Shown here one piece after another: positions 119 through 20,099 of a DNA stretch of 64,000 nt (within the stretch, counting starts at the first letter, position 1; every line of letters starts with the position of its first letter). Made by a program: the position numbers and the translations under genes. The stretch comes from Candidatus Hydrogenedentota bacterium (GTDB lineage: Bacteria > Hydrogenedentota > Hydrogenedentia > Hydrogenedentales > SLHB01): NCBI GenBank assembly GCA_963668025.2, contig CAXXTH010000017.1:576001-640000 (forward strand). The letters are read 5' to 3'. The notes under the pieces were generated by a model, which worked only from the letters and a program-made list of their open reading frames with translations, ran no database searches and was not told the DNA's origin.

Positions 119-1555
119 CTATGCGGAACTGAAGCGGATCTGGATGGCCTCGGTGCAGAGGGCGTCATATTGTTCGCGGGACAGGGTGGCGTTGCGCAGG
201 GCTTCGAGGAGGCGATGGGCAAGGTTTCTGGCGGAGCCAAAGCCTTTTGGAAAGTGGGCGGCCAGAAGGCTGCCATCCTCCAGGAGTTGCATGAGCAGAT
301 GGGCTATCTGCATCAAGAGGTAGTAGATCTTACTGGCCTGTTCGTTTTGGGTATAGGCGTGTTCGAGGTTGTAGCCGCCGTTTTTCTGCACGTTGAATGC
401 TTCATTTTCAATCTTCCAGCGTAAGCGTCCTCCTTCATTGGCCAAGGCGGCCGCATTGTGCGCGGATACGGATACGTTGGTCACCCATTTGAACTTGGTT
501 TTCTTTATCATGCCTTCCGCGTCCGGGCGGGTGTCCACGCATTCGAGCACGGACAGGATGTGTTCACGCCGCTCGGAATCGCGGTAGGGGATGTCGTTGA
601 CCCAGCGAAACTGCTGGTGGATTTCCTTCTTGTTGCCGCAACGCCACGTAAGCTGGTTTTCGGGCGTCGCGGCCGCGAGGCTCTCGAATTCTTCGTTCAC
701 GGTGGCCAATTGGCCGTCCGTGAGCGTAATCATGAACTTCCAGCCATATTGCTGGCACAGCCGAAACACCGGTCCCGTGGCGTACAGGCCGTCCATCGCC
801 AACAGCAGCGGCAAGCGGGGGAATCGGGCATGCAGGCGTGGGGCCAGCCGGTAGAAGGCTTTGGTCTCGCAATCCTGCTTGCGTTGTTGCTCGCTTTTCG
901 CCAGGTCTTTCTCTGGATTCTCAATGAACTCCGTCATGAGCGAAAAGACCCACCCGTTTGGCGTGACGATCTTGGACTCCAGCACGGGATGGTAGTAGGT
1001 GATCTTGCCGCTCTTGTGCTTGCGCGTGAGGCAATGGGCGCAGTGGCGATGATCATAACTGCGTGTCCCCGTGGCGTCGATGGCCGCCACGTAGTAGCGC
1101 CCGAACAGGCGGTGGGGGTACAACACCTTCTTGTCGATGAGCGTCTGCGTCATGCCGGAAACGAGTTCCTGGACCGCCTCGAACGGCAAACCGCGAAATA
1201 CCCCGTTCATCGTATCGCCATGCGGCACGCTGTCCACGTCAAACAAGACCTTGTACAGATGGACCATGAACGTCGTGTACAACTGCAGGCGGACTTGCCG
1301 GCGCGCCCCGAGCCGGCATGCGAACATCAGCACTCCCAAGAACACCAGCGACGCGACACTGTAGTCCACGTCGCCGGCTTGCTCGGGTTTGCGGGGATCG
1401 GGCAAGCCCGCAAAGCGCTTGCGCACCGGGCCAAAGAAGTGGGTGAACGTCCTCAAGAAGGCCCGGATGATTTCCGGATGCTCTTCTTGCGGGTTTGCAG
1501 GAACTGCCGTTGGGCCGCGCCCATGGCCTCGACGAGCTTCTTGAGCTTTTTCCAT
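119..1555 (-). CDS. DDE transposase (ISAs1-like/IS4 superfamily)
   Basis: N-terminal LPDPRK motif; DDE triad in AIDATG, AMDGLY and RWKIENEAFNVQK. Confidence 0.9.
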   Translation of the reverse strand: MEKAQEARRGHGRGPTAVPANPQEEHPEIIRAFLRTFTHFFGPVRKRFAGLPDPRKPEQAGDVDYSVASLVFLGVLMFACRLGARRQVRLQLYTTFMVHLYKVLFDVDSVPHGDTMNGVFRGLPFEAVQELVSGMTQTLIDKKVLYPHRLFGRYYVAAIDATGTRSYDHRHCAHCLTRKHKSGKITYYHPVLESKIVTPNGWVFSLMTEFIENPEKDLAKSEQQRKQDCETKAFYRLAPRLHARFPRLPLLLAMDGLYATGPVFRLCQQYGWKFMITLTDGQLATVNEEFESLAAATPENQLTWRCGNKKEIHQQFRWVNDIPYRDSERREHILSVLECVDTRPDAEGMIKKTKFKWVTNVSVSAHNAAALANEGGRLRWKIENEAFNVQKNGGYNLEHAYTQNEQASKIYYLLMQIAHLLMQLLEDGSLLAAHFPKGFGSARNLAHRLLEALRNATLSREQYDALCTEAIQIRFSSA

Positions 1556-1800
1556 TCCTCAATCCATTGCGCCACTTCGCGGCGCAATTCACGGGGCACG
1601 TGGAGGGTGCGGGTCTTCCCGCCCTCCTTCCACGTCAGCAGGGCCGTTTCATGGATCGGCCCTTCCTGGACGCACCGGCAGCGCGGGTTCCCGCAGCGGC
1701 TGCGGGTGATGGTGAGCGTGGCGGGAAGAAAGGGCCCCAGACGCGCCAGGCGCGCCTGGACCTTGCGTCCCGCCGAGTTCGTGACAGGTTTCCCTTCCAT
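1453..1800 (-). CDS. IS-associated accessory protein (DUF6788-like)
   Basis: RSRCGNPRCRC...GPIH...WKEGGKTRTLHVP pattern directly upstream of the transposase; ATG at 1800. Confidence 0.75.
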   Translation of the reverse strand: MEGKPVTNSAGRKVQARLARLGPFLPATLTITRSRCGNPRCRCVQEGPIHETALLTWKEGGKTRTLHVPRELRREVAQWIEEWKKLKKLVEAMGAAQRQFLQTRKKSIRKSSGPS

Positions 1801-2020
1801 GTACGGAAGTATATATACTTCCGTACCAGAAGTCAACAAAAAAAAGCGCCGATGCGAAGAAAAAACTCCCCGCACCGGCGCATCCTCAACTCATTCAACT
1901 GCTTCTACGCGAAAAAAAAGCGGTTCTTCACCGCTGCATGGCCCACTCTTCGCACCCATAATCCAGGCTTTTCAAGCGCGTCAGGTTGAACCGCATGAAG
2001 CGGGGAGATACAGTGCAAGC

Positions 2021-4804
2021 ATGAAACAAGCAGATGGGAATGAAGTGGAGCCATCCCGTGAAACTGCCCAGGCGGCAACGGGAAGCTATCCGATACTCGA
2101 CCCCGCCCAGTGGGTGCGCGCAGGCCTTGCGCTATTGATAGCGGCCGTGGTGCTTGCCATGTATCCCACTACGGGCGATTCGACAGGACCTATCAAAACG
2201 ATCCTTTTGAGCTGGGGAGTCTGCGCCTTGGCGGCGTTCTATGGCGTAGCGACAACCGCGCAAGGCATCTCCTGGCGGAAGCCCGGCCTGCTCCTGGGGG
2301 CGCTCATAGCCTTAGTGCTGCTTGCCCTGTCAGCGGCGCTGGCCTCGAACCACACGGGCTTCGCCCTTGTGGAGGTGCGGCGGCTGGCGGCGCTTGCTTT
2401 AGCCGCCTGTTTGGCCGGGCAAGTTTATCGCACCCGAGTCCAATGCGACGCCTTTCTCGCCACCGTGTGCTGCGCGGCAGCCGTAAACTCATTATACGCC
2501 CTGGGGCAATATGCGGGCGCGGATCCCTTTCCCTGGGCATATGAACACGGCGTTCTATACGCCCAACTCCCAGGAACCTTGGGCAATCCCAATTACGCGG
2601 CCCACCTGGTGGCCTTGGCCGCCGTGTTGTCCATCTATCTTTCCACCACGGAACGCTGGCGATGGTGCATCGTTTTCGCGCCGTTGTTCCTGGTGCATTT
2701 GCGTTTCACCGGCCAGCGCGGCGGCGTGGCCGCGTTGGCAATTGCATTGCTCGTGGCGGGCATCGCCATCGCAATTAAGCATACCCGGCGCAAGACAGCG
2801 ATCACCATGAAACGGCTTTTCGCTGGGGCGGGATGTCTGTGTTTGGCGGGCATATTGCTCGCCGCGGGTGGTTCCTATGCCAAATATGGCCGTTTGTATC
2901 CTTTAGACTCCAGCCTGCTCGAACGCTACAACGGCTATGTCAGCGCCGCTTCCATGGCGGCCAAACGCCCGCTCTTGGGCTTCGGGCCTGGCAGCTTTGT
3001 CATCGAGAATCCGCCGTTCTGGACCGCATACGAGCAGCTCCGTTTCGCCCTCAGCCGCGAAACCAATGCGCGCGTACATAATGACATCCTGGAATGGGCC
3101 GTGGATGCGGGCATACCCGCCGCAGGCCTGTATGTCCTGTTCCTGTCACTCATCGCCGCCACCGGATTATGGCTCTATTTTCGCGACACAGGCCCACGAG
3201 GCCGTTTGGGGCTTTGTTTCGCCGTTTTTGCGATAACCTTCACCGTGGATGGATGTTTTGGTTTTAATTTTCGTCTGCCCGCTTCCGCTTTGCTCCTCGT
3301 CGTGGTGTCTGGACAGGCGGCGGCTGCCATCACTTCCGAAAATGCGCTATTCCCCGCACGGCTGCGCGGCATGCGATGGGCTTTTCTGGCGGCCATACTG
3401 GCGGTTATAACAGCCATCGCCGTGGGCGATGCCCGGGTCTTTTTGAGCCAGCTTGCCTACACCCGGGCCGCGAGCAATGTCCGGCTGGGGAGGTATCGGG
3501 ACGCGGGCGAAGCGCTGGCCAAAGCGGAACAACTAGCGCCTTGGAAATGGAATTATTCGAGCGAACGCGGAAGCCTGCAACTGGACCACGGCAATCTCCA
3601 AACCGCCGCCGTACATTTCACCAAGGCCCTCGAAAAAAATCCTAACTCGCTCATGGCGCTGGCTAATCTGGCCAAAGCCTTGATGGAACAAGCCCTGGCC
3701 GGGCAAGGCCCGCTAGACGCCTCCCAAGCCCAGGCGCTCGATGCTTCCGCGCAAGCCATCCAGCGCGCATTGTCTTTATGCCCAGTTTTGCCAGCGGCGC
3801 TCGAACTACAGGGCCGGATTGAGTACGCCCTCACGCAACGAACCTTGCCGCCAGGCATACAGCCCCCCAGCGGCGTCACGCCACAGCCAGAGGCCGCCGA
3901 GAAACATCTGCGGCAAGCGGTCCAGTATGGCGTTGAAAAACCAGCGCCCCTATATCTTCTTATCGCACAAATACGGCAAAATGACGGAGATATAGCGGGC
4001 GCGGCACACGACGCCGCACGCGCCGCGGCCGTCGACCCGGCATCCAATCCCGCATGGGAATACTGGTTCTCGATTGCTTCACAGGCGAATGCCATCGATG
4101 CATTCGAACAGGCGCTGCAAGCGGAATGGGAAAAGGCCTCCCGAAAACAGCCGCCGCAAGAAACCCTCTTGGCGGTCACGGCGTACTGGCAGGGCCGCGC
4201 AGCCCAAGCCTTCCAACAAGATACAGCGTTAGCGGAATCCTGGTACGTCAAAGCACAGCACTATGCCCCCTACTGGCCCGTGGCATGGATGCCCTCCACC
4301 GAACTCGCGGACGCATCCGGCCGCCGCGATGCGCTCCGGGAACAGCTTAGGAAAGCCCTCTCCGCTATTCGCGGCACCCCGCCCATGCCCCCCGCCATGG
4401 AAGCCGTGCGCATTGTGTTCGAGGATAAAGAAACCGCCGAGGCCGCCGCCATTCTGCGCGCGGAACTGCCTGCAAGCAGCGCCCCTCGCGATCAAAGCCA
4501 GCTTGAGCAACTGGCATGGGCCGCCCAATGGGTTGAAGAGTCCCTAACGGATCATAGCGCGGAGCCAGCCAAAGGGGGCGCCGCCTATGTCAACCTGGGA
4601 CTCGTCTACGCCGCCGCAGGCCAGATGGAACGGGCGGATGCATGCCTGGGCCGCGCCGCCCTGTTTCTAGCCCAAACAGACCCAGCCCAAGCGCTTCCAG
4701 GAGGCGAAGATACCGCACGCCGTATCGAAGCCTGCGCGGCAGCTTGCCCTAGCCAGCCGGAATGGGCGTATCTTGCCGAACGATTCCGGGTGGAAACGAA
4801 ATAG
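2021..4804 (+). CDS. O-antigen ligase-family membrane protein with C-terminal TPR repeats
   Basis: GTLGNPNYAA, RGG, PLLGFGPGSF and HNDILEWAVDAG Wzy_C motifs, then TPR-like helices; ATG at 2021 after GGAG. Confidence 0.85.
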   Translation: MKQADGNEVEPSRETAQAATGSYPILDPAQWVRAGLALLIAAVVLAMYPTTGDSTGPIKTILLSWGVCALAAFYGVATTAQGISWRKPGLLLGALIALVLLALSAALASNHTGFALVEVRRLAALALAACLAGQVYRTRVQCDAFLATVCCAAAVNSLYALGQYAGADPFPWAYEHGVLYAQLPGTLGNPNYAAHLVALAAVLSIYLSTTERWRWCIVFAPLFLVHLRFTGQRGGVAALAIALLVAGIAIAIKHTRRKTAITMKRLFAGAGCLCLAGILLAAGGSYAKYGRLYPLDSSLLERYNGYVSAASMAAKRPLLGFGPGSFVIENPPFWTAYEQLRFALSRETNARVHNDILEWAVDAGIPAAGLYVLFLSLIAATGLWLYFRDTGPRGRLGLCFAVFAITFTVDGCFGFNFRLPASALLLVVVSGQAAAAITSENALFPARLRGMRWAFLAAILAVITAIAVGDARVFLSQLAYTRAASNVRLGRYRDAGEALAKAEQLAPWKWNYSSERGSLQLDHGNLQTAAVHFTKALEKNPNSLMALANLAKALMEQALAGQGPLDASQAQALDASAQAIQRALSLCPVLPAALELQGRIEYALTQRTLPPGIQPPSGVTPQPEAAEKHLRQAVQYGVEKPAPLYLLIAQIRQNDGDIAGAAHDAARAAAVDPASNPAWEYWFSIASQANAIDAFEQALQAEWEKASRKQPPQETLLAVTAYWQGRAAQAFQQDTALAESWYVKAQHYAPYWPVAWMPSTELADASGRRDALREQLRKALSAIRGTPPMPPAMEAVRIVFEDKETAEAAAILRAELPASSAPRDQSQLEQLAWAAQWVEESLTDHSAEPAKGGAAYVNLGLVYAAAGQMERADACLGRAALFLAQTDPAQALPGGEDTARRIEACAAACPSQPEWAYLAERFRVETK

Positions 4805-4806
4805 CT

Positions 4807-5772
4807 TCACATCGCGATGGCTATCCCCCCCAGCGCGCCCAGCAAAAATGCCGCCAGCGTCTTGGCAAGGATGCTGCTAAGAATGCAAAGAAACAGATAA
4901 GTAACGATCAGATGAAAGGGAAAATCCAGTCTCATCCAGAGATATGCCAGCACAAACAGAAATCCAAAAATCGGAATCATAAGCAATACATTTATAATAA
5001 TAGTAGATACCAACACCGACGCTAGATTCATGGCCATATCATCCGAAGGCAGCATCTTGGCCATGTGAAGCACCAAATATAAAGAAAGGAATACCGGTAG
5101 AAGCCGCATCGCGAAGCAAATGCCAAGAACTATAATATACACGGAAGCCGGCAAATCCTGCTCAGGCGCGTTAGCCATTTCGCCGCCGTGCGAGTATTCC
5201 GCCATGTTTTCCGGCTCGCTGAACAGGGCCACATATACCCCGAGCAGCATCACCAAAATCGCCGCGGTCCAAAGGGCTGCTCGAAACAGCTCCGGATGTC
5301 CTTTCGCAAAAGCAGGGATCTTCGGACTATCGTCCTCACTTTCGTTCAGCGGCGGCAAATGATGAAACGCTTGGGGCGGCAATGGTTGTGAGGTGATGAC
5401 TTCACCTTGGACAACGGTATACCCTTCTGGGCTGGACAAGCGGGAACAGATATGGCAAATCACACCGATATCGGTTTCATACCGGTCCCATTCCCCCCGG
5501 AACGGTTTGCCGCATCGGGCGCATGCCCCTCCCGCCACGCGAGGTGGAGAATCATTCGAGATGAATCCCTCCACCGCCGGATTTAGGCTTTGTGGCGCAA
5601 CCGCCACGGGGGCGGCTTGGCGCACCGGGGAAGAGGCAAAAGGCTGGGTATTCTCGCTGGTGACATCTAGGACACTGTGGCACTTGCTACAACGCCCTTT
5701 GGTCCCCATCGCATATTCCGGCACCCGCATCCGGTTGCCGCATTGGCCGCAAAATAGCACTAAATCCGACAT
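4807..5772 (-). CDS. Double zinc-ribbon membrane protein
   Basis: CGQC/CSKC and CARC/CHIC pairs, several C-terminal hydrophobic helices; GGAGGA RBS. Confidence 0.75.
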   Translation of the reverse strand: MSDLVLFCGQCGNRMRVPEYAMGTKGRCSKCHSVLDVTSENTQPFASSPVRQAAPVAVAPQSLNPAVEGFISNDSPPRVAGGACARCGKPFRGEWDRYETDIGVICHICSRLSSPEGYTVVQGEVITSQPLPPQAFHHLPPLNESEDDSPKIPAFAKGHPELFRAALWTAAILVMLLGVYVALFSEPENMAEYSHGGEMANAPEQDLPASVYIIVLGICFAMRLLPVFLSLYLVLHMAKMLPSDDMAMNLASVLVSTIIINVLLMIPIFGFLFVLAYLWMRLDFPFHLIVTYLFLCILSSILAKTLAAFLLGALGGIAIAM

Positions 5773-5984: not shown

Positions 5985-7913
5985 TTAATCCAGCGCGAGC
6001 ACAAACGTGCTTACACTGTGCCAGGCATTGTGCAGGAAAAGGGCTTCCCGCTGCGCGCCGGCTTTCTTGAAGCCCAGCGCCTCTAGAAATGCCTGGAGCG
6101 CGGGCTCCCGATCTGCGGCTTCGACCAGAATCCGGCGAAGGGATTGCTGTTTGCCCGCCTCGGTGAGGAGAAACCGGAATCCCTTGCGGATGCGTTCCTG
6201 GGCATACAGCGCTTCATCATGCAGGAAGATGCTGGCGCGCATGGCGCCCGTAGCCATATCTGGCGTCATGCGGACCAGGCCAATGGGCGCGCCGCCGCGT
6301 AGCGTGGCGACCATTTCCTGCACGAAAACTTGCGGGTGAAGGGCGTCCATCTCCCGCTCGTATTGCGTGGTCATCAATACGCAGCCCGGATGTAACACAA
6401 AATACGAAGCCTCGCTCCAGTTTTCCCACTTCACCAGCATCTCGGCGTCCGCTTCCGCGATAGGCCGCATCAGCACATTCAATTGGAGCGCGGCGCGCGC
6501 CATCGTGGCGAGGGAAAACAACGACGGCTTGGACGAGGCGTTCATGCCTTGATAAATCGGCGTGAAGTTGACCCCCTGGCCGGAAAGAATATTGAAGGCC
6601 GATACCGCCGAGGCCATCCACATGCGCTGCGCCTCGCACCAAGGCCCATGTGGTTTGCGGAAAGAGCCCGAAAGAGCTTGATGTACGGCGGCCGTCCCGC
6701 CGCCGCATAAATTGCGCGCCCAGCAGTTCCGGCACGCGGAAGTCGTGAGCGAGCCCACATCGTCATATCGCTTTAAGGCTTCTTCATCGACATGCCCGTC
6801 CACGATAGACCCCGCCCGGAATTCCGGCATCCCGAAAAAGCGCCAAGAGGGGTAAATGCCGCCGTCGGCGTCCACCGCGAGTTCATTCGTGCCGGTTGCA
6901 TCCGTACGGGCTTGCGGCTTGCCTTCGTGAATACGGTAAAACAATGCGGCAATGGGATCGAGCCGGAAATGGCGTCCCTTGGCGAGTTGTTCCGCATAAT
7001 ACACCGCCGACTGGCTTAATCCCGGCAGTATGGCGGCAGGTTCGAGCGCGGGATTGGCGATGAACGCGCCATCCAGATCGATCTCGATGACTTTGAAACC
7101 CGCCTTGTCCAGTTCCGGCACCACTCCGCCGTATTCCGGATGATTCGGCCGTACAACGATGCGCCCTGACACGCCTTCCGCGCCAGGCTGCAATACTTTC
7201 ACCAGGCGCGCCAGCGACTCCGTACTGCCTTTCGCCAAGGCATTCAAATGCGGCGCAATGCCGCTTGGATCTTGGAACGCCAGTTTGGCGGAAACGGTAT
7301 GGCCTTTCAGCGCTTCTGGCGGATTCGACAAGGCAATGTCCGCCACATGCACGACCGCACTCAGTTTTTTCCCCGCGAGCGAGGCGAGGCGTAGCGCATG
7401 GGCGCATAAACCGGCAAGCAATTCGGGCTGGCGCACGGCTCCCGGAACGATGAATTCGATAGCGAGTTCTTTCTGCTGTTCGGAGCGCGTGAGCAACAGT
7501 TCGACGGCTTCACGGCCTTGCTCGCGGGCGGAGTTCGACACCACCTGCACATCCTTGCCGAACCAGCCGCGCTTGCGCGGCGCTTCCACGGCATCCTCGC
7601 CCGGCAGCGAAACCGCTAAATGCTTGATTCCACGCTCCACGGAAAAGGTCTTCACGAAATCTTCTGGCGCAGGCTGCACTAGAATGGATTTGGTCGTGCG
7701 GAGCCACTCGAGTTCGCCCACGACTTCCGACAGTTCCTTCGGGTTATGTTGCTCCCCGAGCAGCCGGATGATGCGCGTCACGGACGCATCGGGGTAATAC
7801 TCGAGCACATCCCAGGAGATGCCGTCGCACTCGAAGCAGAAACAGGTTTCCGGGTCAATGGCAAACCGCTTGCCGCCCAGCTCGAACCGATGAATGCGTT
7901 CGCCCGCCATCAA
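5985..7913 (-). CDS. RRE + degenerate radical-SAM + SPASM + C-terminal GNAT fusion (putative peptide maturase scaffold)
   Basis: N-terminus IHRFELGGKRFAIDPET resembles the CteB/QhpD RRE; no CxxxCxxC; SPASM LAVDADGGIYPSW...CRNCWARNLCGGGT...C; C-terminal MRPIAEADAEML...LEALGFKKAG RimJ/L-like GNAT. Confidence 0.85.
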   Translation of the reverse strand: MMAGERIHRFELGGKRFAIDPETCFCFECDGISWDVLEYYPDASVTRIIRLLGEQHNPKELSEVVGELEWLRTTKSILVQPAPEDFVKTFSVERGIKHLAVSLPGEDAVEAPRKRGWFGKDVQVVSNSAREQGREAVELLLTRSEQQKELAIEFIVPGAVRQPELLAGLCAHALRLASLAGKKLSAVVHVADIALSNPPEALKGHTVSAKLAFQDPSGIAPHLNALAKGSTESLARLVKVLQPGAEGVSGRIVVRPNHPEYGGVVPELDKAGFKVIEIDLDGAFIANPALEPAAILPGLSQSAVYYAEQLAKGRHFRLDPIAALFYRIHEGKPQARTDATGTNELAVDADGGIYPSWRFFGMPEFRAGSIVDGHVDEEALKRYDDVGSLTTSACRNCWARNLCGGGTAAVHQALSGSFRKPHGPWCEAQRMWMASAVSAFNILSGQGVNFTPIYQGMNASSKPSLFSLATMARAALQLNVLMRPIAEADAEMLVKWENWSEASYFVLHPGCVLMTTQYEREMDALHPQVFVQEMVATLRGGAPIGLVRMTPDMATGAMRASIFLHDEALYAQERIRKGFRFLLTEAGKQQSLRRILVEAADREPALQAFLEALGFKKAGAQREALFLHNAWHSVSTFVLALD

Positions 7914-8905
7914 TACGCTCCCAGCGTGCCCTTATCGCGGCTCCAATTCTCACAATACCGGAAACAGGCAATCCCAATAGTGGTCCATAACATGCAACTG
8001 ATGAGAAAGAAGAAAAAGGACGGCTGATGGAAAACAGACGAGAAATAGGTCTTGTATTTATAGACCGGCTTCATCTCGGGCTTGCCTTCCGCATCCATGA
8101 CCGGCTTGCCCCGCTTGTCCAGCACAGTCTCCTGTCGGACAAGCATTTTTTGGCCATTCTCATCCAGCAGAAATTCCGGCGAGCCTTCGGCATCCAGCAC
8201 GGGCAGTTGCTGTCCGTCAATGAGGGTATAGCGCAGGCACCGGGATGCATCCGTGACGGGAAGGACGTGCGCCACGGCCCGTGCTGGTGCGGGCCACGCT
8301 TGCGGGCCTGTTTCGGAGAAGGTGGAAAAGGTGGCCAGCCCTATCAAGATAAAGCGCAGAATCATGGCAATCGGGCCGACATCCTTGAAGATCAAGACCA
8401 GGCCGCCCACCATGAAGCCAAAGCCAATCAGATTCAGATAGGTGAGGCCGAGCAGCGCCACCGTAGCAGCGGGCGCGAAATGGAGCGAGCCAGGCGCGAC
8501 AAAATGCGCCACCAAGCCGAGCATGATCGCTGAATTGGCGATGCTATTGACCGAGGAAACAAACGAACGCGCCAGGAAATTAACCACCAGCCCGTACGGG
8601 CTTAGGCAAACCTGTTCGAGTTCGCCCGTGCGCGCCATGCCTTGGATGCCTTGGGTGAACATGCCCACGATGCCAAAGGCGAATACGCCAATGAAGAATC
8701 CCAGTACGAGGCTGACATACCCGCTGAGGTTATCCAGGGCATTTGTACCGCCCAGCGTGATGACCATCTTCACCGCTCCGCCGATCATGGCGAAGCCCAT
8801 CGACAAGCCAATCAACGCCGCGAACCAATACCGCCGCATAATGATGAAGCTGCGGACCAATTCGGCCTTGAGTATGAGGAAAAATCCGCCTATCGCGTAT
8901 AACAC
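7910..8905 (-). CDS. ABC-2 type exporter permease
   Basis: Multiple TM helices, GELEQVCLSP motif, adjacent to the ABC ATPase; 4-bp overlap with the maturase gene. Confidence 0.85.
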   Translation of the reverse strand: MLYAIGGFFLILKAELVRSFIIMRRYWFAALIGLSMGFAMIGGAVKMVITLGGTNALDNLSGYVSLVLGFFIGVFAFGIVGMFTQGIQGMARTGELEQVCLSPYGLVVNFLARSFVSSVNSIANSAIMLGLVAHFVAPGSLHFAPAATVALLGLTYLNLIGFGFMVGGLVLIFKDVGPIAMILRFILIGLATFSTFSETGPQAWPAPARAVAHVLPVTDASRCLRYTLIDGQQLPVLDAEGSPEFLLDENGQKMLVRQETVLDKRGKPVMDAEGKPEMKPVYKYKTYFSSVFHQPSFFFFLISCMLWTTIGIACFRYCENWSRDKGTLGAY

Positions 8906-17800: not shown

Positions 17801-19428
17801 ATAGTCGTCACGAGCGACATGACAATCTCTTCGCGAATCGGGTCGATGGGCGGATTGGTCACCTGCGCGAAGAGCTGTTTGAAATAATTGAACAGCAACT
17901 GCGGGCGCTCGGACAACACCGCCAGCGGTGTATCGTTGCCCATCGAGCCCACGGGCTCATGGGCGTCGCGCGCCATGGGGGCCAGCAGGATCTCGTGGTC
18001 TTCCTGGGTATAGCCGAAGATTTGCTCCCGCTCGATGAGCGGGGCTTCCTTTGCGGGCCAGCCTTTGCGCGGGCAGCTATCGGGAAGCGTGAAGCGATGC
18101 ATATCCAGCCACAGGCGGTAGGGCCGCATGAGCGACAAGCGGTTCTTGATTTCGTCGTCGCCCACGATGCGGTGCTCCTCGGTGTCGATAAGGAACATGC
18201 GCCCGGGCTCGAGCCGCCCTTTCTGGACAATCTTCTCTTGCGGGATATCCAGCACGCCCACCTCGGACGCCATTACCACGAAATCATCGTCCGTGACCCA
18301 ATACCGCGAGGGGCGCAAGCCGTTGCGGTCGAGCACCGCGCCGATGCGCACGCCGTCGGTGAAGGCCATCGAAGCCGGGCCGTCCCAAGGTTCTTGCAGG
18401 CATGCATGGTATTCATAAAACGCCTTCTTCCCGGGCGGCATGCTTTCATGCTTGGCCCAAGGTTCGGGGATCATCATCATCATGGCGTGGGCCATCGAGC
18501 GGCCGCCATGCACGAGCAGCTCGAAGGCGTTGTCAAAAATGGCCGAATCGCTTCCCGTTTCATCTAGTACGGGCAGCAGGTCATGCACATACCCCCCAAA
18601 AAAGGGGCTGGCTAAATGGCGCTCGCGTGAACGCATCATATTGATATTGCCGCGCAAGGTATTGATTTCACCATTATGCGCCAGGAACCGAAACGGCTGG
18701 GCCAGGGGCCATGCCGGCAACGTATTCGTACTATACCGCTGATGGACCAGGGCAAGCTGGCTCTCGAAGCGCGAATCGCTCAAGTCTTCATAATACCGAG
18801 CCATTTGAGTGGCCAGCATGAGGCCTTTGTAACAAATCGTTCTGGCGGATAGCGTCGCGAAATAAAAACAGCTTCGGGATGGAATATCCGTCTGCGCCAC
18901 GGCGCGCTCGATGCACTTCCGGATCACGAATAGCATCCGCTCGAAACCGTCCACATCCAGCCCAACGCCACGACCGATAAACACCTGGTAAATGACCGGC
19001 TCATTCTTCCGCGCCAGCCATCCCAGCGCATCCGAATTACGCGGCACTTCCCGCCAGCCTAGAAAATGCTGATGCTTATCTATGATGGCCTTCTCGGCGA
19101 TTGCCATGCACTTCTTCCGATCTTTCGCGTCCGAAGGCAGAAAAATCATCCCCACGCCATATTCGCCCTTGCCCGGCAAATCAAACTTCAACTCCCCCGA
19201 AATCTCCTGGAAAAACCGGTGGGGTATTTGCATCATAATGCCCGCGCCGTCGCCCGTCTCGGGGTCGCAGCCGCATGCGCCTCGGTGTTCGAGATTCTCG
19301 AGCACTTGAATGCCCTGCTCGATAATCTGGTGGGTCGGGCCGCCTTTCAGGTTGGCCACGAAGCCTACCCCGCATGCATCATGCTCATAAAAGGGGTCAT
19401 ACATCCCGTGTGGTTCTGGGTAATTCAT
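14896..19428 (-). CDS. gltB: Glutamate synthase large subunit
   Basis: EHDACGVG, HQRYSTNT, HNGEINT, MAQGAKPGEGGQLPG, CHLNTCPVG and GXGXG domain; alternative start at 19455. Confidence 0.98.
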   Translation of the reverse strand: MNYPEPHGMYDPFYEHDACGVGFVANLKGGPTHQIIEQGIQVLENLEHRGACGCDPETGDGAGIMMQIPHRFFQEISGELKFDLPGKGEYGVGMIFLPSDAKDRKKCMAIAEKAIIDKHQHFLGWREVPRNSDALGWLARKNEPVIYQVFIGRGVGLDVDGFERMLFVIRKCIERAVAQTDIPSRSCFYFATLSARTICYKGLMLATQMARYYEDLSDSRFESQLALVHQRYSTNTLPAWPLAQPFRFLAHNGEINTLRGNINMMRSRERHLASPFFGGYVHDLLPVLDETGSDSAIFDNAFELLVHGGRSMAHAMMMMIPEPWAKHESMPPGKKAFYEYHACLQEPWDGPASMAFTDGVRIGAVLDRNGLRPSRYWVTDDDFVVMASEVGVLDIPQEKIVQKGRLEPGRMFLIDTEEHRIVGDDEIKNRLSLMRPYRLWLDMHRFTLPDSCPRKGWPAKEAPLIEREQIFGYTQEDHEILLAPMARDAHEPVGSMGNDTPLAVLSERPQLLFNYFKQLFAQVTNPPIDPIREEIVMSLVTTIGSEGNLLDETPEHCQQLFLHSPILTNEQLDYIKQLDKPGLKAAEISILFPAMEGPGALDKALDRVCAEVTDAVSNGATLLILSDRGVNELMAPIPSLMATGAVHQHLVRTQRRSECGLIVESGEPREVMHFALLAGYGAGAVNPYMAFEILDELVLKGAVPGSDFAKAQANFAKSIEKGLLKTMSKIGISTLHSYRSAQIFEAIGLSSALVARCFTGTASRIEGIDIADVARETLMRHAIAYPKTHARSRELDPGGIYRWRPRGEYHQVNPETIASIQHAVQKNNREKYREFSSIVNDRNRQLATLRGLLKFKTGDAVPLDEVEPAKDIVRRFCTGAMSFGSISKEAHENLAIAMNRLGGRSNTGEGGEDPRRFTPAPNGDSRRSAIKQVASGRFGVTNEYLVNADELQIKMAQGAKPGEGGQLPGHKVFQEIATVRYSTPGVELISPPPHHDIYSIEDLAQLIHDLKNANIHANVSVKLVSEVGVGTVAAGVSKGKADLVLVSGDAGGTGASPLSSIKHAGIPWELGLSETQQVLVQNDLRDRIRVQTDGQMKTGRDVAIAFLLGADEVGFATMPLIASGCIMMRKCHLNTCPVGIATQDPELRKKFNGKPEYVINFFFFVAEEVREIMAQLGFRTVNEMIGRVDMLEYDPLPTHWKSQKLDLTRILTKPEPWEGSTLYCSKKQEHGIEEALDFEIMKKAEPAIERQAPVRFRLNIRNIHRTVGAMLSSELTRRYKLGLYGGTLPEDLIWIDCKGAAGQSFGAFTIQGVTLCVEGEANDYIGKGLSGGKIIVRPSKDGGFSPEHNIIVGNVALYGATGGQAFFRGVAGERFCVRNSGAWAVVEGVGDHGCEYMTGGRAVILGKTGRNFAAGMSGGIAFVYDEDGSLASKCNTGMVDLKPLHEKSIPELRDMLVRHVEYTDSAAARRILADYAESVEKFVRVMPRDYARVLKSQMQSEFERMTQIPH

Positions 19429-20099
19429 AGGAAATTCACCTTGCCTTTCAAACACATCCTCGAAAAGACCATTGGCTCACCGGCCCAATAAAAGATAGGA
19501 CGCCAGCCCGCAGGCCCTGTTCGCCTCGCCCCTTGCCCGCCGTCTTTGTACACCCTGCCCGCCATGCAGGTCTTTGGGTGCGCTGATGATTCATCAGCTC
19601 AAGATGCGGGAGCGAGAGAGGCGCGCGGCAGCGAACTCCACCTTAGGTGAACATCAATGCCGCTTTACAAACCGCACCACGGCGCCAGCCCAGCAATTGC
19701 CCAGCTTTGCTTCCATTTCTACAACATGTTGTAGTTTTAACGCCGCGAAAGACTTTGATCTGGTGGGTACCGCATACCGCGTGCCAAGTCTTTTTCGGGA
19801 TGCGCGCGCAAATGCGTCGCGCGCAAATGGGTGAATGATAAGAGCTTATACGGATTTATCTTCATGCGTGTCTTGTGTGCGGCTATAAAAAAACATACAT
19901 TTGCGTAGGAACATTTCCAAAATGTAGTACATTTACGTAGGACGTTATGCGCCCATGTTGTTCTTTCTCCTCGTCTTAATCTCACAAAAAAGCCATACAA
20001 TTTGTTCCTTTCTTACATAAGTTGTGTTAGACTAGTGAAGCGGCATATCACTTGCTTGGCCATGAGTACAGGCTTATGTGGTGAGGAAGGAGACAAAAC

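Follow-up and report, generated by a model that had tools for sequence, protein, structure and literature searches.

What remains of a radical S-adenosylmethionine (SAM) peptide maturase once the cysteines for its radical chemistry are gone, and why would such a protein be kept? This question is raised by a gene on the reverse strand of a 64,000-nucleotide stretch of DNA from a Candidatus Hydrogenedentota bacterium (contig CAXXTH010000017.1), referred to here as the window. Radical SAM/SPASM proteins are usually annotated, and counted in genome mining, as active maturases, and public records name the family of the window protein just "SPASM domain-containing protein," from Candidatus Hydrogenedentes. 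A first-pass annotation, made from the letters of the window, had proposed that the gene encodes a pseudoenzyme kept by selection as a scaffold with one structural metal cluster. The analyses reported here support that the family fails the defining sequence features of radical SAM enzymes, has four of the seven SPASM cysteines, and keeps both folds in its predicted structure.

Loss of the catalytic motifs and retention of the AuxII cysteines

The open reading frame (ORF) has zero internal stops in its 642 codons, in agreement with the first-pass annotation. Translation probably begins at the ATG at 7910-7908, which would give a protein of 641 amino acids (aa); in the sequence TGATG, this codon overlaps with the stop of the permease gene that lies upstream. 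The segment originally described, 6580-7913, corresponds to residues 1-444 only of the 642-aa protein. The description as a scaffold with one structural cluster consequently covers part of the protein only, as the last 164 residues form a GNAT domain. In addition to this fused domain, the first-pass annotation had overlooked a gained C-x-C-xx-C motif, the stepwise course of the losses, and the operon context, all of which are described below.

All motif strings quoted in the first-pass annotation are present in the translation, i.e., IKHLAVSLPGEDAVEAP (residues 96-112), IVPG (155-158), TDATG (337-341), YPS (354-356), and GGGT (404-407). In a phmmer alignment with CteB, the sactipeptide thioether synthase of Clostridium thermocellum, the CX3CX2C motif of CteB aligns over residues 103-112 and its GGEP motif over V156-A159; the string IVPG is therefore one residue off. 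In the same alignment, C394, C397, C403, and C426 match the C-x2-C-x5-C ... C of CteB. The GGEP position reads V-P-G-A (156-159) and its columns are variable in the family; intact relatives read FFGGEPL. The cysteines of intact relatives that hold the first auxiliary cluster (AuxI) align to D338, S356, and T407. Measured against the seven-cysteine SPASM motif CX9-15GX4C-gap-CX2CX5CX3C-gap-C and the AuxI ligand set as given in the available part of PMC6231123, four of the seven cysteines are present (D338-x12-G351-x4-S356 ... C394x2C397x5C403x3T407 ... C426), with the conserved SPASM glycine kept as G351, and the missing three are the AuxI ligands.

Our family alignment has 120 rows, consisting of the window protein and 119 of the best 120 of 273 word-indexed matches; the match omitted, P0002, is a fragment (379 aa) of the window protein itself. 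Almost all of these best matches are 590-674 aa long and 49-62% identical. All four cysteines of the second auxiliary site (AuxII) were found in 120/120 rows as well as in 43/43 genome-derived orthologs, so the canonical spacing C-x2-C-x5-C-x22-C noted in the first-pass annotation holds throughout the alignment. D338, at the first AuxI position, is also present in 120/120 rows. Position 356 is occupied by S (91 rows), C (24 rows), or other residues (5 rows), and position 407 by T (38), N (22), S (17), C (15), or other residues (28); none of the 120 rows has Cys at both positions. Segment 96-125 has no conserved Cys in the 120 rows, the window protein itself being Cys-free there, and this cluster-loop region is deleted in shorter family members. 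CX3CX2C was found in none of the 44 family rows down to an E value of 5e-31 and is present in intact relatives. Together, the alignments with CteB and with intact relatives bear out the claimed loss of the SAM-cluster motif, the GGEP motif, and all AuxI cysteines, and close homologs that retain these cysteines, which would have pointed to recent degeneration, were not seen among the 119 closest homologs. Judging from the column counts, this pattern of loss and retention is more than chance. The segment that replaces the cluster loop keeps [RK][RK]-G-W-F-G in most rows (residues 115-118; 7560-7571, reverse strand), with W117 in 115/120 and F118 in 112/120 rows.

Profile searches gave a matching picture. 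At E ≤ 0.1, the window protein had no match to the Pfam radical SAM model (PF04055) and none to the Pfam SPASM model, and its only Pfam matches were two subthreshold GNAT matches at residues 480-631; the intact relative P0164 scored 72.8 bits with PF04055. The NCBIfam SPASM model TIGR04085 matched residues 341-423 at 40.0 bits (cutoff, 27 bits; 44.6 bits in the whole-genome search). The NCBIfam models for SCIFF, ranthipeptide, and sactipeptide maturases remained below their cutoffs (TIGR03974, 71.5 versus 425 bits; NF047865, 58.5 versus 340 bits; and NF045574, 19.7 versus 625 bits), with further far-subthreshold matches to PapB, QhpD, and other peptide maturases.

A described counterpart to a SPASM domain with one cluster site is the Twitch domain of BtrN, MoaA, and SkfB, a reduced SPASM that binds one auxiliary cluster and that, in the account available from PMC6231123, keeps the first half of SPASM and hence AuxI. 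The window family, in contrast, has a full-length domain with the AuxII ligands alone and no SAM cluster. By its ligand pattern, then, it is the mirror image of the Twitch domain. To our knowledge, no AuxII-only SPASM has been described to date. In the full-text literature covered by our search, which did not extend to subscription journals, we found no account of this family, of a cluster-less SPASM scaffold, or of a fusion between a radical SAM protein and a GNAT.

The predicted structure resembles the peptide maturase CteB

An AlphaFold2 model of the window protein, for which the input alignment consisted of 67 family sequences, had a mean predicted local distance difference test score (pLDDT) of 86.7 and a predicted template modeling score of 0.69. 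Its confidence was low only at residues 103-125, the site of the cluster loop (pLDDT of about 48), and in the linker at 458-473. CteB was the best match by both sequence and fold: it was the top Foldseek match (5wgg; E value of 5.9e-18; TM of 0.70 on the target), it aligned by VIA with Z of 26.4 and a root mean square deviation (rmsd) of 3.6 Å over 386 residues (4-444 of the model), and phmmer against the Protein Data Bank matched it in two stretches, 6-173 and 340-429 (E value of 3.1e-18), with an acetyltransferase (3igr; E value of 0.44) as the sole other match. VIA also returned anSMEcpe (4k36; Z of 19.3 over residues 95-460), ChlB (Z of 19.3), and TigE (Z of 17.5). The model contains the partial (beta/alpha)6 TIM barrel, as judged from the CteB and anSMEcpe matches, and the topology of a RiPP recognition element (RRE; RiPP, ribosomally synthesized and posttranslationally modified peptide), with strands at 8-12, 15-20, and 25-29 followed by helices at 31-37, 45-52, and 58-73. 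The expectation in the first-pass annotation of an RRE, a partial TIM barrel, and a SPASM domain thus agrees with the Foldseek and VIA results.

Based on the matches to CteB-type enzymes and, over residues 474-642, to GNATs, the protein is, as modeled, composed of five parts: an RRE, a radical-SAM-type barrel, a SPASM domain, a linker, and a GNAT domain. CteB (5WGG/5WHY) has the first three in the same order. The two proteins are merely 17-20% identical, and CteB has CX3CX2C, GGEP, and an AuxI with three Cys ligands and an open site, none of which the window protein has; the window protein, unlike CteB, carries the extra C-terminal GNAT domain and the C-x-C-xx-C motif on strand beta3 of the RRE.

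The cysteines were lost stepwise

An exhaustive HMMER search with residues 1-444 as the query gave 1,202 matches at E ≤ 1e-3, of which 45 were at E ≤ 1e-30, and we examined 149 of the 150 listed rows. Among these rows, the full-length ones from an E value of 2e-27 on are ordinary radical SAM/SPASM proteins with CX3CX2C, FFGGEPL, and CGGGC, with P0172, P0231, and P0267 as the exceptions. Three GNAT-fused proteins, P0154, P0157, and P0162, are without CX3CX2C and GGEP and have kept all three AuxI cysteines. An ortholog of the P0154 type (L036/L047) lies in the same operon in a member of the same phylum but of another order; it also has no CX3CX2C and has all seven SPASM cysteines. These AuxI-keeping fusions share the architecture of the window protein and differ in having no C-x-C-xx-C, and the GNAT domains of P0154 and P0157 are more canonical (30-40 bits with Pfam).

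For 57 N-terminal regions picked from the 150 rows, leaving out fragments and most intact radical SAM rows, we calculated a quick IQ-TREE tree (midpoint-rooted for drawing). The AuxI-less family formed one group (SH-aLRT support of 100), and this family together with the three AuxI-keeping GNAT fusions lay on one side of a branch (SH-aLRT support of 100), while P0172 and the P0231/P0267 pair were placed among intact enzymes. That a deep-branching ortholog in the same operon lacks CX3CX2C and retains the seven SPASM cysteines supports that the losses were stepwise. In the simplest history suggested by these sequences, GNAT fusion and, in the form thus fused, loss of the SAM cluster were followed by AuxI loss in the main lineage, and clusters were lost separately elsewhere.

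Two of the exceptions merit a description of their own. P0172 (656 aa) has an RRE with a weak Pfam match to PqqD, a barrel without CX3CX2C and GGEP, a full seven-cysteine SPASM domain, and a fused Peptidase_S24-like domain; nested among intact radical SAM enzymes in the quick tree, it appears to be an independent fusion of a dead radical SAM protein with a tailoring domain. P0231, P0267, and P0269-P0277 make up a second small family of unfused RRE/radical-SAM/SPASM-like proteins of 455-487 aa, all of which are without CX3CX2C (VTTD instead) and retain both GGEPL and the AuxII cysteines; in seven, the AuxI positions read D, S, and S or P, as in the window family. A metagenome scan for this second family found no locus.

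The gene is widespread in the phylum and under purifying selection

Whole-genome searches of the phylum, which is apparently Hydrogenedentota, recovered the gene from 124 of 135 genomes, nearly always as one full-length copy; it was present in 83 of the 86 genomes of high quality and in 61 of 66 genera. The frame is unbroken both in the window and in 43 genome-derived orthologs. We calculated dN/dS by the NG86 method for within-genus pairs of 70-98.5% identity (40 of 44 pairs listed) and obtained 0.03-0.20 for the whole gene, 0.02-0.23 for the barrel, and 0.01-0.21 for the GNAT domain, with the highest values, reaching 0.41, in the segment of the former cluster loop. dS is saturated in many pairs; the reliable ones, with dS under 1, gave 0.04-0.20 for the whole gene. 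Entropy was highest in segment 96-125 (2.04 bits), followed by the barrel (1.67), the GNAT domain (1.37), the SPASM domain (1.23), and the RRE (1.17). These data, in particular the dN/dS values and the presence in 124 of 135 genomes, agree with the proposal in the first-pass annotation of selection rather than decay. The gene would have to be read as recently degenerating, a pseudogene on its way out, if the loss of catalytic motifs were taken alone. This candidate was rejected, and we give it next to no credence, on the basis of the intact frames, the phylum-wide conservation, the invariant columns, and dN/dS far below 1 in every domain.

The gene is part of an operon with GNAT, protease, transporter, and small peptide genes

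We surveyed the neighborhood of the gene in 16 further loci, each from a different one of the 124 genomes that had a match; together they cover 10 of 15 families. Genes for an ABC-2 type permease, an ABC transporter ATPase, a CPBP intramembrane protease, and two stand-alone GNATs (A and B) recur beside it (Table 1). Upstream of the gene for GNAT B, one to six small genes per locus are arrayed whose products start with M-K-H-[ILVMC]. Such small ORFs number 36 in the 1.7-kb upstream segments (27 kb) versus 1 in the remaining 533 kb, counting both strands, and at least one is present in 15 of the 16 loci. In the 38-aa peptide of the window, M1, H3, A12, N20, A25, W26, and E36 are invariant in a 13-row alignment, in which K2 is conserved to at least 90%. 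Reading the sequences, most of the peptides have a hydrophobic helix near the end followed by Lys and an acidic/polar tail. Neither peptide of the window matched a family in Pfam or NCBIfam.

A conserved class of peptides with two cysteines (C-x11-12-C-F in a hydrophobic stretch) recurs among distant members of the phylum, in six loci (L034, L035, L037, L043, L045, and L046), and is missing from the array of the window. No Cys-rich substrate peptides were found beside the gene, the two in the window being Cys-free and those of other loci being of the two-cysteine class at most. According to the first-pass annotation, the loss of AuxI, whose open site in CteB had been proposed to bind the substrate Cys, fits Cys-free peptides. 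The pairings do not agree with this: the scaffold orthologs that were typed in two-cysteine loci (L034, L035, L043, and L045) are all AuxI-less, and the reverse is seen in L036, in which the AuxI-keeping ortholog adjoins a Cys-free peptide. Cys-free substrates as the cause of AuxI loss were rejected on these grounds.

The RRE is predicted to dock the N terminus of the 38-aa peptide

A complex of the whole protein (67-row alignment) and the 38-aa peptide (13-row alignment) was modeled and scored 0.69 (0.69, 0.72, and 0.56 in the individual runs) versus 0.01 for the best of three controls. Of 80 solved complexes, 58 attain the score mark used, as do 2 of 110 mismatched pairs; these counts apply only roughly here, as own alignments were used. 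At least 78% of the contacts agreed between runs, and the pLDDT of the partner was at least 60. Confident contacts join peptide residues 1-11 to protein residues 17, 24-33, 60, 63-64, 67-68, 70-71, 76, 328-331, and 437-449. In the model, these contacts are those of the classic RRE mode, and the model supports leader binding on beta3 against alpha3; binding of the CteA leader to beta3 of the CteB RRE, as described in the available part of PMC6231123, is the mode predicted here. Independent backing comes from conservation, as the RRE residues in contact, D30, E63, V64, and E67, are invariant and the peptide is most conserved at its own contact positions M1, K2, and H3.

The gained motif C24-F-C26-F-E-C29 lies on the same strand. 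C24 and C26 are found in 118/118 rows with residues there and C29 in 118/119 rows, and the complete triad is found in 41 of 43 genome-derived orthologs. It is absent from all intact radical SAM rows and from P0154, P0157, and P0162; the AuxI-keeping fusions read SFVFEL, CFVFET, and CFVFEI at this site, and two divergent family members read TFCFEC, with T at position 24. In CteB, the RRE is about 33 Å from AuxI and the active-site side, according to the available part of PMC6231123. Based on this distance and the position of the triad in the predicted leader groove, we rejected the possibility that the triad took over the ligation of AuxI.

The C-terminal domain has a GNAT fold

Residues 474-642 of the model matched GNAT structures by VIA with Z of 15.5-17.2 and rmsd of 2.4-3.6 Å over about 150-164 aligned residues, and a profile of 22 orthologous C-terminal domains matched RimL with an E value of 1.2e-6. 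GNATs commonly bind the pyrophosphate of acyl-coenzyme A (acyl-CoA) through a loop of the form Q/R-x-x-G-x-G/A, and many GNATs are dimers. In the family consensus, the loop that aligns to this site reads R-D-E-A-D-Y-A-S and is followed by R-K-G-F. GNATs that tailor RiPPs exist: the available text of PMC8784127 describes selidamide maturases that acylate Lys/Orn side chains, and a lasso-peptide acetyltransferase (9iy3) likewise acylates side-chain amines of a ribosomal peptide. The available part of PMC8784127 reports no fusion of a selidamide GNAT to an RRE/radical-SAM scaffold. Although 9iy3 was among the structural matches (Z of 15.7), this match shows a shared fold only, since dozens of unrelated GNATs score equally well or better.

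Proposed function and alternative explanations

We consider it moderately likely that the window protein descends from a CteB-like maturase, has lost its radical chemistry, and serves as a peptide dock for the fused GNAT, for GNATs A and B, or for both, ahead of proteolysis and export. The N-terminal 445 residues would form a rigid, noncatalytic dock, in which the AuxII Cys4 site would hold one structural metal center, most likely [4Fe-4S]. The peptide genes stand at the head of the operon, and the RRE would bind the common "MKHI.." leader of their products as a strand added on beta3 against alpha3. Acyl transfer to the peptide thus presented would be carried out by the fused RimL-like GNAT, by the two stand-alone GNATs, or by both, with the conserved Lys near the peptide C terminus as the likely acceptor. 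The CPBP protease would then cut off the leader, and the product would be exported by the ABC-2 transporter, which is translationally coupled. Other RiPP systems also have noncatalytic partners with an RRE, namely PqqD and, in azoline-forming cyclodehydratases, the E1-like "C protein": both bind the leader and present the peptide to a catalytic unit distinct from themselves, and one of the two is a dead homolog of an enzyme. PqqD and the C protein derive from other folds, whereas the window protein would be a dead radical SAM/SPASM protein with a fused GNAT partner.

Several observations weigh against this proposal. Its weakest step is the activity of the fused GNAT, which may not bind acyl-CoA: the window's copy scores 15.9 and 16.3 bits with the Pfam GNAT models (cutoffs, 24.3 and 25.4 bits), the Q-G-Q-G CoA loop of RimL aligns to Y570-A-S-D in the acidic loop (an alignment that is possibly shifted), and the RimL-type Asn aligns to E603 in the profile alignment. 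The complex may have passed on account of likeness, since CteB and ChlB leader complexes have already been solved, and peptide residues 12-38 were placed without confidence, so that the model gives no sign of the core reaching the GNAT domain. The peptide adjacent to GNAT B is conserved over its whole 38-44 residues across the phylum; RiPP cores do not usually show this, and the peptide could instead be a partner or regulator and not a substrate. In one locus (L041 in G072), the permease gene stands alone next to the target gene, and no ATPase, CPBP, or GNAT gene turned up within 7 kb upstream; this operon is split or rearranged. Finally, 11 of 135 genomes, two of them 96-97% complete, had no match, with the absences concentrated in one family, which indicates that the system is dispensable in some lineages.

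With its acidic, noncanonical CoA loop and Glu at the Asn position, the fused domain makes a pure adaptor with GNAT A as the catalyst a serious rival, which we nevertheless regard as unlikely. In that case, the fused GNAT would be dead too, the RRE would hold the peptide, and the pseudo-GNAT would pair with GNAT A or B or dock on the ABC-2 exporter; the subthreshold Pfam scores of the fused domain versus 61 bits for GNAT A fit this, and the overlap of the permease stop with the start of the gene and their adjacency in 16/16 loci fit a complex. Yet the fused domain equals the rest of the protein in conservation, by both entropy and dN/dS, the atypical loop is itself conserved (Y570 in 119/120 and D569 in 103/120 rows) and fits a working site equally well, and the CoA loops of GNATs bind by backbone amides and tolerate sequence drift. 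A different way to explain the purifying selection on the barrel is that the former SAM pocket gained a nonradical catalytic or ligand-binding role, to which the invariant polar residues R143, K182, H205, E277, D279, Y306, and R317 and the retained WF loop could contribute. We consider this improbable: in the model, the invariant residues lie at both strand ends and thus form no obvious single pocket, the barrel is the least conserved folded domain, and shorter members of the family lack the WF loop.

Two further alternatives concern the Fe-S clusters. A cluster could still be held at AuxI by D338, S/C356, and other ligands, such that two clusters would be kept; D338 is invariant and lies beside the invariant R336, and Asp and Ser ligands of Fe-S clusters exist in PqqE and LipA, as stated in the available part of PMC6231123. 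With position 407 varying freely (including A, R, and P), Cys never at both 356 and 407, and G or N at 356 in distant members, there are at most one or two plausible ligands, and re-ligation of AuxI seems to us rather remote. Alternatively, a noncanonical cluster site, e.g., C24/C26/C29, could still allow SAM cleavage, a thought suggested by the three gained, invariant cysteines and by the noncanonical cluster motifs of ThiC and Dph2. This cryptic radical SAM activity is a very remote prospect, as the triad is on the leader-binding strand of the RRE, at the distance from the active-site side given above for CteB, GGEP is gone, the cluster loop is variable or deleted, and divergent members have T at position 24.

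Beyond the proposed dock, it is tempting to connect the triad with the loss of AuxI in another way, since the main lineage lost AuxI and carries a triad that the AuxI-retaining forms lack. The triad might then be a replacement in the sense of a metal or redox site at the peptide groove, possibly completed by the invariant His3 of the peptides; the AuxII cluster would be a redox or iron sensor, and the protein a metal-gated loader that sets the time at which peptides throughout the phylum are acylated and exported. We regard this idea as quite unlikely; if true, a radical SAM fossil would have been turned into a RiPP checkpoint under Fe-S/thiol control, which would be of a new kind.

Returning to the noncatalytic dock that we favor, its family illustrates that a body of three domains can persist without radical chemistry through divergence worth hundreds of millions of base pairs. 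The L036 type, with AuxI and AuxII and no SAM cluster, and the main lineage, with AuxII only, amount to a natural dissection of SPASM, and their comparison could test the roles, debated for a long time, of AuxII as mainly a structural element or electron relay and of AuxI as the substrate-touching cluster. The operon points to an uncharacterized peptide system in which amphipathic peptides with a leader come together with a CPBP protease, an ABC-2 exporter, and three GNAT domains. Given that the target gene is present in 124/135 genomes of a largely uncultured phylum, this system probably serves cell biology and not strain-level warfare.

Coordinates and other features of the window

Table 1. 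Positions in the window of the target gene, its parts, and the genes of its operon (loci, the 16 surveyed loci)
Feature	Coordinates	Strand	Basis or remarks
Whole ORF, 642 codons: RRE, cluster-less radical SAM barrel, AuxII-only SPASM, linker, GNAT	5985..7913	-	
RRE (PqqD-like winged helix), residues 1-90	7644..7913	-	Modeled secondary structure, alignment with CteB starting at residue 4, invariant columns
C24-F-C26-F-E-C29 on RRE strand beta3	7827..7844	-	Column counts, genome-derived orthologs
Former CX3CX2C loop, residues 96-125	7539..7628	-	No conserved Cys, most variable, low model confidence
Partial TIM barrel, radical SAM type, residues 126-330	6924..7538	-	Structure matches, pLDDT 84-97
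SPASM domain, residues 331-445	6579..6923	-	TIGR04085 (40 bits), alignments, column counts
AuxI positions D338, S356, T407	6900-6902, 6846-6848, 6693-6695	-	Alignments with CteB and intact relatives
AuxII ligand positions C394-x2-C397-x5-C403 ... C426 (x22)	6636..6734	-	Column counts
RimL/RimJ-type GNAT-fold domain, residues 479-642	5988..6479	-	Structure matches, 22-ortholog profile
ABC-2 type permease	7910..8905	-	Directly before target gene in 16/16 loci; stop overlaps target start
ABC transporter ATPase (DrrA-like)	8981..10060	-	15/16 loci
CPBP (Rce1-like) intramembrane protease	10057..10956	-	15/16 loci; true start probably downstream of listed TTG
Stand-alone GNAT A (Acetyltransf_3, 61 bits, above cutoff)	10824..11456	-	15/16 loci
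Stand-alone GNAT B (divergent, Pfam subthreshold)	11496..12056	-	13/16 loci by tblastn
38-aa peptide gene, GTG start, MKHIRKIS N terminus, Cys-free	12216..12332	-	Orthologs in 12/16 other loci
45-aa peptide gene, GTG start, MNHIKAMT N terminus, Cys-free, second array member	12457..12594	-	Close counterpart in L031

The gene downstream of the target gene (4807-5772, reverse strand) encodes a 321-aa protein with an N-terminal zinc ribbon and a C-terminal membrane part; none of the 16 other loci has this gene conserved beside the operon. At 14329-14764 (reverse strand), a ParE-family toxin gene (PF05016, 31.8 bits) overlaps an upstream 62-aa ORF that has no Pfam match and is the presumed antitoxin. 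This pair is flanked by genes that we take, by eye from their translations, to be gltD-like (12801-14288) and gltB-like (14896-19455). A 478-aa ORF at 119-1555 (reverse strand) has weak subthreshold matches to DDE transposases (PF13808 and PF01609) and is possibly IS4-like. It is overlapped on the forward strand by the spurious upstream part of a 1,448-aa ORF (458-4804), of which only the later part resembles a real membrane/TPR protein.

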